Assembly (NCBI GenBank): GCA_042408215.1
Contig: JAYFMW010000017.1
Coordinates: 672,001-736,000 of the forward strand
DNA from: Microcoleus sp.
Lineage (GTDB): Bacteria; Cyanobacteriota; Cyanobacteriia; Cyanobacteriales; Microcoleaceae
Direction of reading: 5' to 3'
Length of the DNA stretch: 64,000 bases
Made by a program: the position numbers and the translations under genes. Below, piece by piece: positions 1-47,998 of the stretch. The stretch's first letter is position 1, and every line of letters begins with the position of its first letter. The notes under the pieces were generated by a model, which was given only the letters and a program-made list of their open reading frames with translations, ran no database searches and was not told the origin of the DNA.

Positions 1-556
1 GTCGGGGGACTGACACCTTGATCGGAGCCAATCGCACCGCCGATATTTGGGACTGATATCTGTGTAATTTACGCTTTTTGTGATGGAGTTGAAACCGTAA
101 ATTCTGCCAAGACGTTTGGCGAGATTTGAGAGAGCAGGATAAGGGAAAAACACACCCTTTTTTACGATCGCGCCAATTCTTGAGAGCGTAAAATTTCCGA
201 GCATTCTTAAGTTTACGTTCGGCTTTCTTCAACCAATCGGCACAGGAGTTGGCTTTACCTTCTAAGGTTTTGATATGTAAAATCCGACATTCTTTTGTAC
301 TATCAACAGCACCCTTGGCGGCTGAGATAATGCCGTAGGCGTGTCGAGCGCTAATCCCGTAATTGTCTTGTAAATGAGTCCGCCATTTAGATTTATTAAA
401 GTCAACACCTGAGAGGATAAAGTTCACCGTTTCACATACTGCATTGTGGAAAATTGGGGTATAAGCACTCAAAAACATTTCGAGCTGAGTTTGGCCCAGT
501 GGGTTTAACTCATCTATTGGTGTCGGAAGTGCTTTGCAGTATGTCAGAGTAGTCAT
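1..556 (-). CDS. TnpB-related IS accessory protein, N-terminal part (runs off the window edge)
   Basis: Open frame from ATG at 556 (MTTLTYCKALPTPIDELNPLGQTQLEMFLSAY...) to position 1; resembles N-termini of cyanobacterial IS200/IS605 TnpB-related proteins; RuvC part is outside the window. Confidence 0.6.
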   Translation of the reverse strand, partial: MTTLTYCKALPTPIDELNPLGQTQLEMFLSAYTPIFHNAVCETVNFILSGVDFNKSKWRTHLQDNYGISARHAYGIISAAKGAVDSTKECRILHIKTLEGKANSCADWLKKAERKLKNARKFYALKNWRDRKKGCVFPLSCSLKSRQTSWQNLRFQLHHKKRKLHRYQSQISAVRLAPIKVSVPR

Positions 557-696
557 CGGTATAAATTCGCTCTGGTTATGGACTATTGTCACACTTTGAC
601 GTGACGAATGTCAATTTTACGGGATTTTCACGGATTGTCGGGAAAATATTTGTCCTGGCAATTACACCTTAGCGATCGGAGAAATGGTTTCAATCC

Positions 697-999
697 ATGA
701 TCTGAGGCTAACTCGCGGAATTTTTCCCAATCGGTAATTTTATGACCATTACCGGACACCCGCCCAAGCAATGCTAGAAAGTCCCCTGTTTGGGCTTGTC
801 GCTTCAGCCATAGCCCGATCGTTTTGCGAATGATGTCGAACAATATACTCGCTTCCATAATCTTTAAGCCATCTAGTTGGATAGCTTGAATGACTTTCTG
901 ATGTAGGTCGTAGCTGTATGGTTGGGCCATGACCTGCGATCGCCCCGCAACCAAGAAGATTATTCTCAGTTTACGCCATAATCGCCTTGGCGGTTGCTA
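697..999 (-). mobile_element. IS630-family fragment (left end plus partial OrfA HTH)
   Basis: TA followed by TAGCAACCGCCAAGGCG end; ORF 628-954 MAQPYSYDLHQKVIQAIQ; near-identical to 38318-38622; homology stops at about 695. Confidence 0.85.
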
Positions 1000-1034
1000 T
1001 ATTGTCTGTGCATCGAGGATTGTCTGAGGCCTCC

Positions 1035-12418: not shown

Positions 12419-12456
12419 GGTTTAGCATCTAGCCCAAGAAACCCCGCGCCTAGCCA

Positions 12457-13404
12457 AGAAACCGGGTTTCTTGGAAAATTCACGCCTCCCCAGGAGATTT
12501 TCCGCAGAAACCCGGTTTCTGAGGCCCCCGCGCCTAGTCCAAGAAACCGGGTTTCTTGGAAAATTCACGCCTCCCCAGGAGATTTTCCGCAGAAACCCGG
12601 TTTCTGAGGCCCCCGCGCCTAGTCCAAGAAACCGGGTTTCTGCGATAATCTTGGCATCACCACCGAGATTTAGGAAGAAACCCGGTTTCTGAGGCCCCCG
12701 CGCTTAGTCCAAGAAACCGGGTTTCTCTGAAAATTCACGCCTCCCCAGGAGATTTTCCGCAGAAACCCGGTTTCTGAGGCCCCCGCGCCTAGTCCAAGAA
12801 ACCGGGTTTCTCTGAAAATTCACGCCTCCCCAAGAGATTTTCCGCAGAAACCCGGTTTCTGAGGCCCCCGCGCCTAGTCCAAGAAACCGGGTTTCTGCGA
12901 TAATCTTGGCATCACCACCGAGATTTAGGAAGAAACCCGGTTTCTGAGGCCCCCGCGCCTAGTCCAAGAAACCGGGTTTCTCTGAAAATTCACGCCTCCC
13001 CAGGAGATTTTCCGCAGAAACCCGGTTTCTGAGGCCCCCGCGCCTAGTCCAAGAAACCGGGTTTCTGCGATAATCTTGGCATCACCACCGAGATTTAGGA
13101 AGAAACCCGGTTTCTGAGGCCCCCGCGCCTAGTCCAAGAAACCGGGTTTCTCTGGAAAATTCACGCCTCCCCAGGAGATTTTCCGCAGAAACCCGGTTTC
13201 TGAGCCCCACGCGCTAATCCAAGAAACCGGGTTTCTCTGAAAATTCACGCCTCCCCAGGAGATTTTCCGCAGAAACCCGGTTTCTGAGCCCCCGCGCTTA
13301 GTCCAAGAAACCGGGTTTCTGCGATAATCTTGGTGAGGATACCGAAATTTGGGAAGAAACCCGGTTTCTGAGCCCCCGCGCCTAGTCCAAGAAACCGGGT
13401 TTCT
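12457..13404. repeat. Tandem array of REPIN-like units, about 85-nt period (11 full units plus a half unit)
   Basis: AGAAACCGGGTTTCT, ~34 nt, AGAAACCCGGTTTCT, ~21-nt linker, repeated. Confidence 0.95.
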
Positions 13405-13437
13405 GCGATAATTTAAGCACCCCCACCGATATGCCAT

Positions 13438-14004
13438 ATGCCACGTCGTGAAGTTATCTTGCAAGCGGGTAATTACTACCATGTTTATAACCGAGGTAAT
13501 AACCGTCAGCTTATCTTTTTTGAGCGAGAAAACTATATTTATTTTTTACGAAAATTAAGAAACCATCTGATTACGAATGGTGTCGATATTATTGCCTATT
13601 GTTTAATGCCGAACCACTATCATTTATTAGTTTACCTGAAAACGGATCGCTTTTCAAAGCTGATGCAGTCATTTACCCTATCTTATGTTAAGGCTATTCA
13701 TAAACGCTATCACAGAGTTGGTTCACTATTTCAGGGACGATTCGAGGCGATTCATGTAGATAAAGAAGAGTATTTATTGCACCTAACTCGCTATATTCAC
13801 TTAAATCCAGTCTGTGCTAATATAGTTAAAAAAGCAGAAGATTGGGAGTTTTCCAGCTATCAAGAATATATCGATTTGCGCCGAGGGAGTTTACCTAAAA
13901 TAGATGAAGTGCGATCGCAATTTCAGTCAGCAGAGGCTTATCGCTACTTTTTAGAAGACTTAACTAACGATAAATTAATCCACCATCTAACCTTTGAAGA
14001 ATAG
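13438..14004 (+). CDS. REP-associated tyrosine transposase (RAYT, Y1 HUH)
   Basis: YHVYNRGNN, MPNHYHLL (HUH), YIHLNPV, WEFSSY; flanked by palindrome arrays. Confidence 0.9.
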   Translation: MPRREVILQAGNYYHVYNRGNNRQLIFFERENYIYFLRKLRNHLITNGVDIIAYCLMPNHYHLLVYLKTDRFSKLMQSFTLSYVKAIHKRYHRVGSLFQGRFEAIHVDKEEYLLHLTRYIHLNPVCANIVKKAEDWEFSSYQEYIDLRRGSLPKIDEVRSQFQSAEAYRYFLEDLTNDKLIHHLTFEE

Positions 14005-14014
14005 CCAAAATCCA

Positions 14015-14853
14015 AGAAACCGGGTTTCTGCGACAATCTCAACATCCCCACCAAGATTTACGAAGAAACCCGGTTTCTAACTCCCACGCATCGCCCCAAA
14101 ATCCAAGAAACCGGGTTTCTACCAGAATTTACGCATCCCCACCAAGATTTACGAAGAAACCCGGTTTCTAACTCCCCACCCAAAATCCCAAAAATCCAAG
14201 AAACCGGGTTTCTGCGACAATCTCAACATCCTCACCAGATTTACGAAGAAACCCGGTTTCTAACTCCCCACGCGATCGCCCCAAAATCCAAGAAACCGGG
14301 TTTCTACCAGAATTTACGCATCCCCACCAAGATTTACGAAGAAACCCGGTTTCTAACTCCCCACGCGATCGCCCCAAAATCCAAGAAACCGGGTTTCTAC
14401 CAGAATTTACGCATCCCCACCAAGATTTACGAAGAAACCCGGTTTCTAACTCCCAGGCGATCGCCCCAAAATCCAAGAAACCGGGTTTCTACCAGAATTT
14501 ACGCATCCCCACCAAGATTTACGAAGAAACCCGGTTTCTAACTCCCAGGCGATCGCCCCAAAATCCAAGAAACCGGGTTTCTGCGACAATCTCCACATCC
14601 CCACCCAGATTCAGGAAGAAACCCGGTTTCTAACCCCCCACCCAAAATCCCCAAAATCCCAGAAACCGGGTTTCTGCGACAATCTCGGAATCCCCACCCA
14701 GATTTAGGAAAGAAACCCGGTTTCTAACTCCCCACCCAAAATCCCAAAAATCCAAGAAACCGGGTTTCTGCGACAATCTCCGAATCCCCACCAAGATTTA
14801 GGAAAGAAACCCGGTTTCTAACTCCCCACGCGATCGCCCCACGCGATCGCCCC
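14015..14853. repeat. Tandem array of REPIN-like units, about 92-nt period (9 units)
   Basis: Same 15-nt palindrome pair as the left array, with different inner sequences and linkers, some containing GCGATCGC. Confidence 0.95.
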
Positions 14854-35445: not shown

Positions 35446-35548
35446 ATAGAAGCTAATTGGCAAAGTCGCGGACGGGCTAGAAGCCCATCCCACAAGAGTT
35501 TTAATAGATTTCACAATGCAAACTAAATGTTGTTTAGCTTAGCAATGA

Positions 35549-36280
35549 ATGATAAATACGATCGCCTTTAAGACTTGGGACAATTTGCTACACACCTATG
35601 TTGACGATTTTGGCCGCGTGAATTATTTGCGCTGGAAAGCAGAGTCGGCGGATGTTTTGAGACAATGGCTGGAAAGTTTGGCGGATGTGGATTTGGCGGC
35701 TTTGACGGATGCGGATGAGCGGCTGGCTTTGTGGCTGAATGCGTATAATGCGATCGCCATTGCTCAAGTTCTTGAAGTATATCCGATCGCGTCAATTCGT
35801 CCAAAAGTTTTGGGAATTCCCAACTGGCTAAGCTTTTTGGATTTCTTCACCCGTTCAACTTCGACAATTGCGGGGAAAAAGTACAGTCTCAATCAAATCG
35901 AACACGGGATTTTGCGCCGGGAATTTGGGGAACCTCGCATCCATTTTGCCTTAGTTTGCGCTTCTGTGGGATGTCCGATGTTGCGTCGCGGGGCTTATTT
36001 CCCGGAGTCAGTGCGAACTCAACTGGAAACAGACGCGAAGGGTTTTATTCACAATCCCGACAAGGTGCGGTACGATGCTGGGAAGAAGACGCTTTATTTG
36101 AGTAAGATTTTTGATTGGTACGGTCAGGATTTTGTGAAGGCGGCGGGCTCTGTGGTTGGGTATGTGGGCGGTTATTTGGGGCCGGATGTGGCTGTGGATG
36201 ATGAATGGGCGATCGTTTTTTTGCTCTATGATTGGAATTTAAATTCAAACTCTCAAAACTTGAACGATTTCCAAATCTGA
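35549..36280 (+). CDS. DUF547 domain protein
   Basis: WLNAYN, EPRIHFALVCASVGCP, SKIFDWY, YDWNLN. Confidence 0.9.
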   Translation: MINTIAFKTWDNLLHTYVDDFGRVNYLRWKAESADVLRQWLESLADVDLAALTDADERLALWLNAYNAIAIAQVLEVYPIASIRPKVLGIPNWLSFLDFFTRSTSTIAGKKYSLNQIEHGILRREFGEPRIHFALVCASVGCPMLRRGAYFPESVRTQLETDAKGFIHNPDKVRYDAGKKTLYLSKIFDWYGQDFVKAAGSVVGYVGGYLGPDVAVDDEWAIVFLLYDWNLNSNSQNLNDFQI

Positions 36281-36316
36281 CGGCGATCGTTTTTTGGCCC
36301 TATGATTGGAATTTAA
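36208..36316 (+). repeat. 37-nt direct duplication with a 37-nt insert (second copy split by the IscB element)
   Basis: 36208-36244 versus 36282-36316 plus 37904-37905; 35/37 identical. Confidence 0.85.
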
Positions 36317-36555
36317 GTCAACCACCCACCACTAATCGGAGTACCAATCTAGTGGGGGCTTAAAAAAGCCAAGTTGACCAGTCTAAGTGGTTCGCCCACT
36401 ACGTTTAAGGTCAGCGTTAAAGACCTACCAGAAAATGCGTGCTAGTTTTCTGCTCTAGAAATTAAAAGTTAAACAGGTGTAAGGGTTAAGCCAGTGCTTT
36501 TAATATAGTTACCGACCTTAAACATTGACGAAGCAAACATTACCCCGTAAGGGAG
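36317..36555 (+). ncRNA. Predicted omegaRNA scaffold of IscB
   Basis: About 240-nt structured non-coding region between element end and iscB (GTCAAC...GTTGAC pairing, internal hairpins); boundaries approximate. Confidence 0.75.
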
Positions 36556-36562
36556 GACTTAA

Positions 36563-37831
36563 ATGTCTAATTTTGTTTTTGTACTTGATACCCACAAACG
36601 ACCGCTCAATCCAATCCGACCGGGATTGGCTCGTAAGTTGTTAAACAATGGCAAAGCTGCTGTTTTCAAAAGGTATCCATTCACACTAATTCTGAAAGTA
36701 GAGGTGACAGCAACCCAAAAATCCACTCTTAAAATAGACCCAGGCTCTAAGACTACGGGAATCGCATTAGTGCAAGGAGAGGACGTAATTTTTGGTGCAG
36801 AATTAACTCACCGAGGTCAAACAATTAAAGCCAGTTTGGAGTCTCGCCGTTCATTGCGTAGAGGCAGGAGAAATCGTCACACTCGTTATCGTCAAGCGAG
36901 GTTTTTCAATCGCACCCGACAAAAGGGTTGGTTAGCACCATCCTTACAACATCGAGTAGAAACAACCCTAACTTGGGTTAACAAATTTATCCGACTCGCA
37001 CCCATTGGTTCAATTGTTCAAGAATTAGTAAGATTTGACTTACAACAACTAGAAAATCCCGAAATCTCAGGCGTTGAATATCAGCAAGGAGAATTAGCTG
37101 GCTACGAAGTTCGGGAATATCTATTGAACAAATGGGACAGGAAATGCGCTTATTGCGGTGTTGAAAATGTACCTTTGCAAATTGAACATATTCATCCCAA
37201 AGCTAAAGGTGGCAGCGATCGCATTTCTAACCTTTGCCTTGCTTGCGAAAATTGTAATACTCGGAAAGGGACTCAAAGTATTGAGCAATTTCTATCTAAA
37301 AAGCCAGAGATTTTGAAGCGGATTCTATCTCAAGCTCATCGTCCGTTAAAAGATGCAGCAGCAGTTAATTCAACTCGTTGGGCATTATTTAATCGACTCC
37401 GCATGACTGGCTTACCAGTTTCTACTGGTAGTGGTGGTCTAACAAAGTTCAACCGCACTCGATTGAATTTAGCTAAAACCCACTGGTTAGATGCAGCTTG
37501 TGTTGGACAAGTTAAATCTTTGGAAGTTCTAACCCGTAAACCTTTATTAATTAAAGCGACTGGACATGGGACTCGTCAAATGTGCCGCACTGACAAGTTT
37601 GGATTTCCATCTCGCTATGTTCCCCGGCTGAAATTTGTTAAAGGTTTTCAAACAGGCGATATTGTTAAAGCTGTTGTTACCTCGGGCAAGAAAATTGGTA
37701 AATACGTTGGACGTGTTGCCGTAAGAACGAGTGGTTCATTCAATATTTCCGCATCCGAATTGGTATCGGGAATTAGTCACAAATATTGTTCAGTTGTTCA
37801 CCGAAAGGATGGTTATTCGTATGCAGCATAA
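36563..37831 (+). CDS. iscB: RNA-guided endonuclease IscB
   Basis: PLMP-like RPLNP, RuvC-I IDPGS, Arg-rich helix RRSLRRGRR, RuvC-II QELVRFD, HNH (CAYC...EHIHP...NL...CENCN), RuvC-III HWLDAA. Confidence 0.95.
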   Translation: MSNFVFVLDTHKRPLNPIRPGLARKLLNNGKAAVFKRYPFTLILKVEVTATQKSTLKIDPGSKTTGIALVQGEDVIFGAELTHRGQTIKASLESRRSLRRGRRNRHTRYRQARFFNRTRQKGWLAPSLQHRVETTLTWVNKFIRLAPIGSIVQELVRFDLQQLENPEISGVEYQQGELAGYEVREYLLNKWDRKCAYCGVENVPLQIEHIHPKAKGGSDRISNLCLACENCNTRKGTQSIEQFLSKKPEILKRILSQAHRPLKDAAAVNSTRWALFNRLRMTGLPVSTGSGGLTKFNRTRLNLAKTHWLDAACVGQVKSLEVLTRKPLLIKATGHGTRQMCRTDKFGFPSRYVPRLKFVKGFQTGDIVKAVVTSGKKIGKYVGRVAVRTSGSFNISASELVSGISHKYCSVVHRKDGYSYAA

Positions 37832-37940
37832 TCCTTGCCTCCCTTTTCCTCTCGCCACTGACCAGGGTACAGGTACAGTGGGAGTCTCCAAGGGGGAAGA
37901 CAGATGAAACAAAAAGCCACTTTCAAGTCGGGATATTTGG

Positions 37941-38047
37941 CCGCATCGCCCAAGTTGCAATTACCAGAAAACCCTATGTTTAATCTGCGAATCCGCGCAC
38001 TTCAGCCCGGCCACATCGCCCAAGTTGCAATTACCAGAAAACCCTAT
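37941..38047 (+). CRISPR. Two out-of-register 37-nt repeats with spacer-like inserts
   Basis: CC(G/A)CATCGCCCAA plus GTTGCAATTACCAGAAAACCCTAT at 37941-37977 and 38011-38047; unique 33- and 35-nt inserts follow. Confidence 0.75.
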
Positions 38048-38095
38048 TCAGAATCTTGTAGACTGCGAAATATCGCACTAGCCCCCATCGCCCAA

Positions 38096-38317
38096 GTTGC
38101 AATTCCCAGAAAACCCTATTAGGGATTGAAACGAATCTTTGCAGAATAGGTAAATAAACTATGGGTTGCAATTCCCAGAAAACCCTATTAGGGATTGAAA
38201 CGAATCTTTGCAGAATAGGTAAATAAACTATGGGTTGCAATTCCCAGAAAACCCTATTAGGGATTGAAACTGGGTAAGCCGATAATCGCGATCTCGTTGC
38301 TCTTTCTGTTGCAATTA
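38096..38317 (+). CRISPR. Orphan CRISPR array with type I-D-like 37-nt repeat
   Basis: GTTGCAATTCCCAGAAAACCCTATTAGGGATTGAAAC at 38096, 38165 and 38234; partial repeat 38308-38317; spacers 32, 32 (identical) and 37 nt; no cas genes in window. Confidence 0.93.
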
Positions 38318-38920
38318 TAGCAACCGCCAAGGCGGTTATGGCGTAAACTGAGAATAATCTTCTTTGTTGCGGGACGATCGCACGTCATGGCCCAACCATA
38401 CAGCTACCACCTACGTCAGAAAGTCATTCAAGCTATCCAACTAGATGGCTTAAAGATTATGGAAGCGAGTATATTGTTCGACATCAGTCGCAACACGATC
38501 GGGCTATGGCTGAAGCGACAAGCCCAAACAGGGGACTTTCTAGCATTGCTTGGGCGCGCCCCCGGTAATGGTCATAAAATTACCGATTGGGAAAAATTCC
38601 GCGAGTTGGCCTCAGATCGTGGGGAGAAAACCCAGGTGGAGATGGCGAAACTTTGGGATGGACAAATTAGCTCACGCACAATCTCACGAGCCTTAAAGAA
38701 AATAGGTTTTATATCAAATCCGGTAGCATCGGAATTATTCATCTCTCTCTTCTCTCCCTCTGCGCCCTCTGCGCCCTCTGCGGTTAAATCATTCCGATGC
38801 AACCGGAAACGATATTACTCGAAAAAAAAGACTTCTGGCTACCGCGAGCGGGATGAAGCCAAGCGCCAAGCTTTCATAGCCGAGTTGTCCACCATACTCC
38901 GAGACAAAATTGTTGATATT
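38318..38920 (+). mobile_element. Truncated IS630-family element containing a MITE
   Basis: TA then TAGCAACCGCC end; OrfA HTH, A8 slippery run, start of OrfB (GYRERDEAKRQAF); DDE domain missing; right limit approximate. Confidence 0.85.
38712..38814. mobile_element. 103-bp MITE with TTA target duplication
   Basis: TTA at 38709-38711 and 38815-38817; inverted copy of 1035-1137. Confidence 0.8.
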
Positions 38921-39199
38921 TACCACCATACTCCCCAGATTTCAACTTGCATTGAACAATGCTAGTCTTGGCCCAAAAGCAGCGCTGAGCGGAGCCGAAG
39001 CGTCGAATTCGTAAACTCAAGCATCAGTTTGATTCTTGGCGAGATGCGATCGAGGATGTCTTGCGCCTTCCGTCCTAACACGGGCGGTTGCTAGATCTGT
39101 AGGGTGCGCCGAGGCGCACCTTAGACCCACAAATACTCTAAAAATTGATCCCTTACCTAAGTGCTATAAGAGTTCGATCGAAGAGAATCGACTAAACAA

Positions 39200-46651: not shown

Positions 46652-47998
46652 GTAAATTACCCAGCACTGACCTGAGTACAGGTACTGTGTGGGCTTTCAA
46701 TAGCCCGCTCGATGATCTTGCACATTGCAAAATAATCTCGAACCTTCGGGTTTATTTACGGAAACCCCAAGAGCAGCAATATTCTTGCTGCCGTTCAAAT
46801 CAGCGTCACCTTTCCATCCACAATGACCACAAACAAACCTTTTACCATTTCTATAGGACTCACCCCGTACCGGATGGATCTGGTTGCACTTGTGGCACAT
46901 TTGGCTAGTGTATCTAGGAGCAACAAACAAAATCTTTACTCCGTACTTTATAGCTTTGTAGACCAGAAATTGGCGCAACTGAAAGAAGGCCCAGCTATTA
47001 CTGAGTCTTCGCTCTTTTTTCGAGCGTGGCTGCTGATTAGTCCGTTCCCTAATTCCAGTCAGCTCTTCCAAAGCAATAATTTGATTTTTGTTTTTAGCCC
47101 TAGTTACGATCCGATGACTAATGGTGTGATTTACCAATGCCTGAAAACGCTTTTCCTGACCCGACAACCGTTTCAACAATTCTCGACATCTGCGTCTAGA
47201 ACTGCGTGTGCCTTTCGAGGCTTTTTGTTGGATGTTTGCTCTCATCTTGGCGTAATGATTTCTAACTGCGGTAATTTCTTTACCGCTAAATGTATCTCCT
47301 TCAGAGGTAACAGCAATATCAGTTCGGCCCAAGTCACAACCCAAAACCTCATCACTTGGTGGTGGTTCTATGGGTTGAGACTCAAGCTGAATATTCAGGT
47401 AGTAAGTACCATCTTTGCGCTTGCACAGAGTAGCAGTTTTGGGATTTTGACCTTTCAGCAATCCAAGCTGGTAGTTGCCTATTGCCAGTGTAAATCTCTC
47501 TCTGCCATCTGTAGTAGTGAGGCTTACTGTCCAGTCTTTTTCCCTAAAAGAAAAAGTACGAGCATCGTAAGTAGCACTCGTAGGAGCAAAACTTTTTACT
47601 GGCTTTCCATCTTTCTTCGAGGTTTTTCTGTTGCCAGAAACTCGTCTAATGGCATGGATTGCCAACTGAGCCGAAAGTCCAAATCTAGCCCTGACATCGT
47701 AATAAACCAAGGACTGCATCGCCAATTCATTCATCAGAGTTGGTGGTACGGTTTGGTTGACATATTCGCAAGCAGCAGCAAACGCCTGAAGGGTGGCATC
47801 AATTTTGATGGACTGTTCCGGCGATACTTGGAGTTTGCAAGATACGGTCAGGAATTGTTTCATAGTAAAATTATATCATGTATTGAAGAAATTATGTCTA
47901 CGCTTACAGATAATTTGTTCGGCTCTTGAGCCTCACGCGCATTCCTCCCGACGCTCAAGGTCGTACCGTCATTGGCGCGGGACTCCTGCTGATGAAAG
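46652..47998 (-). mobile_element. Non-autonomous IS200/IS605-family element (tnpB only)
   Basis: End hairpins similar to 6148-7628; TCAA target on minus strand at 47999-48002. Confidence 0.8.
46697..47863 (-). CDS. tnpB: RNA-guided endonuclease TnpB, apparently intact
   Basis: GCDLG, ALEEL, CHKC...CGHC Zn finger, DADLNGS. Confidence 0.93.
   Translation of the reverse strand: MKQFLTVSCKLQVSPEQSIKIDATLQAFAAACEYVNQTVPPTLMNELAMQSLVYYDVRARFGLSAQLAIHAIRRVSGNRKTSKKDGKPVKSFAPTSATYDARTFSFREKDWTVSLTTTDGRERFTLAIGNYQLGLLKGQNPKTATLCKRKDGTYYLNIQLESQPIEPPPSDEVLGCDLGRTDIAVTSEGDTFSGKEITAVRNHYAKMRANIQQKASKGTRSSRRRCRELLKRLSGQEKRFQALVNHTISHRIVTRAKNKNQIIALEELTGIRERTNQQPRSKKERRLSNSWAFFQLRQFLVYKAIKYGVKILFVAPRYTSQMCHKCNQIHPVRGESYRNGKRFVCGHCGWKGDADLNGSKNIAALGVSVNKPEGSRLFCNVQDHRAGY

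Follow-up and report, generated by a model that had tools for sequence, protein, structure and literature searches.

Where Cas1-Cas2 places its nicks during spacer integration is known for few model systems, mostly from engineered mutants. In E. coli, three anomalous events have been described in which the first nick fell 2 nt into the leader and the second at a fixed 28 nt (Diez-Villasenor et al. 2013, PMC3737337). Type I-D Cas1-Cas2 can acquire spacers without a leader at a very low rate, and for the cyanobacterial type I-D system the host factor and the rulers are still open (Kieper et al., PMC6607411). The active sites of the Synechocystis type I-D complex lie about 117 Å apart, which fits a 37-bp repeat (PMC7969031), and Anabaena Cas6 cleaves near the 3' end of the repeat (10.1101/2020.04.14.041012). 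In our search of freely readable main texts, no natural off-register duplication in cyanobacterial arrays was found. Here, we describe a 64,000-nt stretch of a Microcoleus sp. contig (JAYFMW010000017.1, positions 672,001 to 736,000 of the forward strand; hereafter, the window), in which a relic CRISPR array is preceded by repeat-sized duplications lying out of its register.

A first-pass annotation of this DNA had reported two 37-nt units, each made of 13 nt of upstream sequence and the first 24 nt of the repeat, and the same 13-mer ahead of the first canonical repeat. Both observations were confirmed, the 13-mer at 38083-38095 preceding the repeat at 38096-38132. In window coordinates, the array and the units before it are as follows.

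37906..37940, plus strand: u2, a 35-nt unique stretch between A2 (see below) and B1
37941..37977, plus strand: B1, shifted repeat composed of 13 nt of upstream sequence and repeat positions 1-24
37978..38010, plus strand: u3, 33-nt insert between B1 and B2
38011..38047, plus strand: B2, second shifted repeat with the same make-up as B1
38048..38082, plus strand: u4, 35-nt insert between B2 and B3
38083..38119, plus strand: B3, template of the shifted duplication, i.e., the 13-mer (38083-38095) plus the first 24 nt of C1
38096..38132, plus strand: C1, the leftmost canonical repeat (37 nt), matching Rfam CRISPR-DR5 with 39.7 bits (gathering score 40)
38133..38270, plus strand: s1 (32 nt), repeat C2, an identical copy of s1, and repeat C3, a recent tandem duplication
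38271..38317, plus strand: s2 (37 nt) and the first 10 nt of repeat C4, which is cut by an IS630 insertion at a TA
38316..38965, plus strand: IS630-family fragment at the array end

Over 37 nt, B1 and B2 are identical at 36/37 positions, and each of them matches B3 at 35/37. A 19-mer over the junction of the 13-mer and the repeat was found at only three places in the 7.36-Mb genome, with up to two mismatches allowed. The unit boundaries are uncertain by about 2 nt, B1 and B2 having two further upstream bases in common (39 nt), and position 3 carries a different base in each of B1, B2, and B3, which we counted against an origin by integration. Repeat position 10 is A in B1 and B2 versus C in all three canonical repeats, C1-C3; the A is also present in C4 and in terminal repeats, both here and in relatives. 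This difference, the identical spacers after C1, and a third duplication further upstream go beyond what the first-pass annotation contained.

The shifted units are real and not an assembly artefact, since contigs of other sequencing runs cover them. We compared contigs of four public runs from four studies (X1, X2, X3, and X5; none recorded as RNA) with positions 35500-38500. The X1 contig spans 37879-38125 with two differences from the window and no gap, the X5 contig spans 37881-38043 with the two differences of X1, and contigs of all four runs bridge 36107-36344. X1 may be near the source sample, yet its contig differs from the window. Exact matches to the 19-mer in genome contigs numbered five, all non-cyanobacterial and taken as chance, and the first 24 nt of the repeat had no match in metagenome or viral contigs. 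When 61 relatives were searched for the shifted unit, the matches listed contained only ordinary repeats and IscB ends; among the matches listed for relatives, genome contigs, and metagenome or viral contigs, no empty B site was found. A 72-codon open reading frame across the units (37904-38122) had no Pfam match.

Cas6 processing leaves an 8-nt handle at the crRNA. C1-C3 carry a 3' hairpin and an 8-nt end within a 37-nt repeat that scores just under the Rfam cut-off; B1 and B2 are without both. As had been proposed, the shifted units end before the 3' arm of the CRISPR-DR5 hairpin and the terminal 8 nt, both of which fall in the 13 nt of repeat that these units are missing, so that u3 and u4 would probably yield no crRNA. 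Even for C1, ViennaRNA preferred another fold to the short hairpin.

At its right end, the array is broken, and further pieces were detected near the left edge of the window.

687..1001, minus strand: inverted IS630 fragment (695-1001), then the last 8 nt of a repeat (687-694)
1..592, minus strand: 5' part of an IS607-type tnpB element, which extends past the window edge

Past the inverted IS630 fragment, the order is the 8-nt repeat end, the IS607-type tnpB element, one terminal repeat, and a gene starting MISDKFRRE, the tnpB element adjoining the terminal repeat of the array at G000 C17:671023. The same gene directly follows DUF547 in four relatives (G008, G009, G020, and G063). The segment at 687-1001 probably continues the array, from which it would have been moved by an inversion; such an event, of about 37 kb between IS630 copies, probably split the array, and the synteny in the four relatives agrees. 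The array is a small, decaying, leaderless relic of a cyanobacterial DR5-type (type I-D-like) array, with no sign of function. Elsewhere in the window, there is a further tnpB gene at 46697-47863 (NCBIfam guided_TnpB, above cut-off), and palindromic tandem units of 85 nt (11.5 copies, 12442-13413) and 92 nt (9 copies, 14005-14841) flank a 188-aa open reading frame (13438-14004), which we take to resemble a REP/RAYT-type arrangement.

The third duplication was found upstream, at the end of the DUF547 gene.

35549..36280, plus strand: DUF547 gene, conserved left neighbour of the CRISPR locus in the genus, its last codons coming from u1
36208..36244, plus strand: A1, the left-hand of two 37-nt copies of the DUF547 3' end, which contain no CRISPR repeat sequence
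36245..36281, plus strand: u1, 37-nt unique insert
36282..36316, plus strand: A2, first 35 nt, the last 2 nt lying at 37904-37905 past the IscB element
36317..37903, plus strand: IscB element (HEARO/omega RNA 36317-36543, iscB 36563-37831), inside A2 before the host ATGAA motif

A1 and A2 are identical at 35/37 positions. The DUF547 matches of relatives end at 36244 in 66 of 69 cases, a single A copy is present at all their loci among the matches listed (these cover all but about 7 of the 69), and the sequence that follows this copy differs from u2. Disregarding the IscB element, successive units from A1 to B3 are spaced by 74, 72, 70, and 72 nt. Low-copy direct repeats with 30-42-nt gaps showed no 37-nt peak across the genome (12 of 84 are 35-39 nt), and the A duplication thus stands out by its position and not by count. 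Because the IscB element sits inside A2, its insertion was later than the A duplication, and the element is incidental to the scars. The ATGA on its right is host sequence, as read from the flanks of several other copies, where it starts an open host frame. The left flank of the element, its presumed guide, is A2; A1 has the same last 17 nt but is then followed by ATTCA, not ATGAA, and should therefore escape IscB self-cleavage. IscB and TnpB were also considered as CRISPR-associated nucleases and rejected, both being multi-copy, with other copies that adjoin no repeat, and both lying here at ordinary element ends.

Of 78 other genomes in the genus, 69 contain the DUF547 gene. In 16 of the 69, it is followed by a leader of 259-268 nt and then by the array, with decayed repeats at the far end. 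Since the orthologous loci have their leader on the DUF547 (left) side, the shifted units lie at the leader end. Of 115 matches to a leader motif in related arrays, 106 lie 39-40 nt upstream of the first repeat; three other arrays of this genome have the motif at this distance, and this one lacks it. Before B1, the motif scored far below real leaders (background p 0.01-0.07), and a cryptic leader motif there was not accepted at so weak a score; no anchor motif was found to explain the 13-nt offset. The earlier description of the 13 nt as leader sequence is consequently unsupported: upstream, there is no leader motif of normal score, and the leader of the relatives is absent. The lost leader probably took the promoter of the array with it. 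An old spacer may have ended in these 13 nt. The adjoining u2 may be an old spacer, a leader remnant, or a further insert, and is itself of spacer length (35 nt); 13-mer and u2 together could also be a repeat remnant and a 43-nt spacer, intervals of at least 43 nt making up 71 of 1,439 in related loci (overlapping loci counted more than once).

Other rearrangements were seen at the orthologous position. In many relatives (L100, L103-L107, L109-L111, L114, L120, and L125), 0.9-4.8 kb of variable cargo with a conserved end lies downstream of DUF547, replaces the 3' part of the leader and most of the array, and stops at one terminal repeat. The cargo ends (TGT...ACA) presumably recall Tn7-like elements. 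In L087, L088, L092, and L097, a repeat close to the trailer end of the array is split by roughly 1.1 kb of inserted DNA that contains an open frame.

No cas gene was present among the open reading frames listed for 25000-52000 or among six that were scanned. In this genome, an intact cas1 and a cas2-like open reading frame are located on C6, near a Cmr4-like gene, and a type I-D operon lies on C26, where cas1 is broken by stops and frameshifts (G000 C26:90763-91621; L193:15754-16760); the array with this broken cas1 has 61 repeats. There is also a small array of a different repeat family (ending GTTGGAAAC) at G000 C30:150530-151010. The inserts u3 (33 nt), u4 (35 nt), and u1 (37 nt) have the length of spacers, 973 of 1,439 spacer intervals in related loci being 33-37 nt (a count that includes some overlapping loci repeatedly). 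For none of the inserts was a protospacer detected in the genome itself, in 50,697 phage records, or in 72,556 plasmid records, the hits being noise; the same holds for u3 and u4 across 401 genomes of the order.

A search of related arrays for off-register duplications, as the first-pass annotation had suggested, returned five more. The scan covered arrays with 4,275 unique spacers, mostly from kin and chosen by hand, and gave 26 candidates. Two of these were the B units, and 15 were set aside because they reflected chance extension, likeness between neighbouring spacers, or decay of end repeats. The five fully displaced duplications are all 36-39 nt long, are perfect copies, and enclose inserts of 33-35 nt.

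G026: shift +20, 37 nt duplicated, insert of 34 nt
G018: shift +29, 36 nt duplicated, insert of 35 nt
C10 array of this genome: shift +33, 38-39 nt duplicated, insert of 33-34 nt
G079: shift +38, 36 nt duplicated, insert of 33 nt
G077: shift +50, 36 nt duplicated, insert of 34 nt

Their rate is roughly 1 per 1,000 spacers. In the C10 scar (L164:6528, array strand; G000 C10:106863-106973), a whole spacer and 4 nt of repeat were duplicated. The displaced target in G077 (L254:4735, C32) agrees with B2 at 19 of 36 positions without gaps, and 9 of these form a block that is placed alike in both. This likeness, which has a binomial p of 0.0009 for the pair and was found post hoc among about 20 independent pairs, hints at a possible cryptic target signal common to the two sites. 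Moreover, repeat-end overshoots of exactly 10 nt were observed in 4 of 4,251 adjacent pairs, and none at 9 nt. These 47-nt repeats come from four genomes (L155:2495, L225:2274, L239:1464, and L249:7323, array strand), and the exact 10 nt suggests that the second nick can slip by one helical turn. Nine leader matches had the motif at an unusual distance, and two were dropped as false (one inside a spacer, and one at 32 nt without leader context). In 3 of the remaining 7, the newest repeats were shifted to match, and in the other 4 there was no shift.

G079 C118 (L157): leader 4 nt longer, 41-nt repeats three times
G079 C155 (L160): leader 1 nt shorter, 36-nt repeats
G026 C36 (L087): leader 4 nt shorter, both repeat ends moved

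We assign a probability of about 0.72 to off-register integration by Cas1-Cas2 acting in trans on a leaderless relic array, with the second nick set by distance. The first-pass annotation had proposed two integrations 13 nt upstream with the repeat length kept; this stands as the best reading, with the five like-sized displaced duplications in related arrays on its side, and only its placing of the 13 nt in the leader lacks support. The duplication products are observed, and the part of the enzyme is what we infer from them; the assignment to this class would rest on size and geometry (37-nt duplications and spacer-length inserts), an intact cas1 with a cas2-like open reading frame being present in the genome. 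On the other side stand the absence of protospacer matches and of an anchor motif in the searches described, the weak likeness of u3 to u4 and of u4 to s1, the four off-distance leaders without a shift, the lack of a genome-wide 37-nt peak, and the lengths of the A1-C1 span (264 nt) and of u2 (35 nt). The course of events may have been as follows. The leader between DUF547 and the array, whose absence is seen in the sequence, would have been lost at the outset. The first nick would then have been made 13 nt upstream of the first repeat and the second about 37 bp further on, inside the repeat, and repair would have duplicated 13 nt of upstream DNA and 24 nt of repeat around a new 35-nt spacer. 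The same site was presumably used again, adding a 33-nt spacer. Before or after these events, an integration of like geometry would have copied the terminal 37 bp of conserved DUF547 sequence, with 37 nt of inserted DNA between the copies, altering only the tail of the DUF547 protein. Later, position 10 of the first repeat would have changed from A to C, s1 would have been gained in register and then have slipped into two copies, and the IscB, IS630, and IS607 elements would have inserted, the inversion finally splitting the array. The B events are placed before the A-to-C change, and the gain and slippage of s1 after it, on grounds of parsimony, since one mutation would then explain the whole pattern.

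Among the rival explanations, it is unlikely that slippage or recombination copied one repeat-spacer unit, whose spacers and last 13 nt of repeat then diverged, with no integrase error. Slippage did happen in this array, s1 being present twice, and the base at repeat position 10 is not the same in B1 and B2 as in C1. In addition, u3 and u4 are weakly alike (p 0.01-0.08), the pairs u3-u4 and u4-s1 being the best two of 15 insert pairs (p 0.006-0.08 over four scorings); however, 28 of 1,401 natural adjacent spacer pairs score as high as u3-u4. A simple tandem duplication with homologous inserts, which had been named earlier as the case against integration, is mostly not what was found: the inserts align partly and with gaps, whereas the flanking copies are 95-97% identical. 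Moreover, both truncations fall within 1 nt of repeat position 24, giving 37 nt, and tandem duplication leaves unexplained the 37-nt A duplication and the five scars of the same size elsewhere.

We also judge it quite unlikely that the span is an old, diverged leader interrupted or overwritten by 37-nt copies of neighbouring sequence, with u1-u4 as consecutive leader pieces and not spacers. The distance from A1 to C1 without the IscB element is 264 nt, inside the 259-268 nt of the 16 orthologous leaders. Besides, when 8 queries were compared with 2 leader regions, u4 aligned to the last 50 nt of a leader, with p 0.007 relative to 300 real spacers, and u1 aligned to a more distal part of the leader, with p 0.017. 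Against this, alignment of the whole span to the 16 orthologous leaders was not significant (p 0.08-0.96), the joined inserts gave p 0.04-0.5 against 63 leaders, with permuted order and the reverse complement scoring as well, and a profile HMM gave p 0.2-0.5. We know of no mechanism that would place 37-nt copies at spacer-length intervals. Finally, a minus-strand array in which B1 and B2 would be trailer repeats in decay, offered earlier as a refutation, is very improbable, and the refutation fails: B1 and B2 do carry the position-10 A of decayed terminal repeats here and in relatives, but in the 16 relatives the leader lies towards DUF547, with the decayed repeats at the right-hand end, the Rfam DR5 match is on the plus strand, and decay does not copy 13 nt of flanking sequence.

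If integration out of register is accepted, a broader scenario can be sketched, which we regard as doubtful. After loss of the leader, Cas1-Cas2 would settle on cryptic sites and reuse them. Host DNA beside the array, including the 3' end of a gene, would in this way turn into new repeat, and the array would have changed its repeat twice, to A and then to B. In that scenario, u2 would be a fourth spacer, whose ends were inserted at distant sites, deleting the leader; both the stop of homology to relatives at the final base of A and the unbroken period would then be accounted for. Reuse of a shifted site is one possible route to a new repeat sequence. The locus itself is most likely the fossil of an integration error, and neither a working module nor a new immune function. 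Natural scars of this kind offer ready substrates and predictions, namely that the first nick follows the distance from the leader motif, that the second falls about 37 bp on, and that a 10-nt overshoot occurs occasionally. They also mislead array callers on repeat and spacer boundaries.

As in the anomalous integration of the E. coli type I-E system (PMC3737337), the first nick would lie upstream and the second at a fixed distance, with the spacer-side end of the repeat trimmed and the period kept. In contrast to that system, where the shift was 2 nt on an artificial plasmid with a mismatched leader, here it is 13 nt, natural, at a site apparently used twice, in a leaderless array with a 37-bp repeat. 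The A scar is comparable with the neo-CRISPR arrays of E. coli (Nivala et al. 2018, as cited in 10.1101/148544 and PMC6607411), in which non-repeat DNA is duplicated over a repeat length around a spacer-sized insert; whereas those need artificial up-regulation of acquisition, A is natural, common to several samples, and in phase with the array. The end of the duplication appears to be measured and not set by sequence, as with the repeat rulers of the Haloarcula hispanica type I-B (PMC4872114) and E. coli type I-E (PMC5039180) systems. Those rulers are anchored by mid-repeat motifs and err by 1-3 bp; here, unlike there, the mid-repeat motifs of B are displaced by 13 nt and A has none, so that, if integration occurred, a motif-free default length must act. 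The array also resembles the orphan DR5-type arrays of filamentous cyanobacteria that are served in trans by type I-D Cas proteins (10.1101/2020.04.14.041012), being Cas-free, with a 37-nt repeat of the same Rfam family and the operon elsewhere, but it is leaderless and cut by insertion sequences. Collectively, the scars are most likely a natural variant of a known integration error, set apart by the reuse of a shifted site, a scar hidden in a coding gene, and companion cases in relatives.
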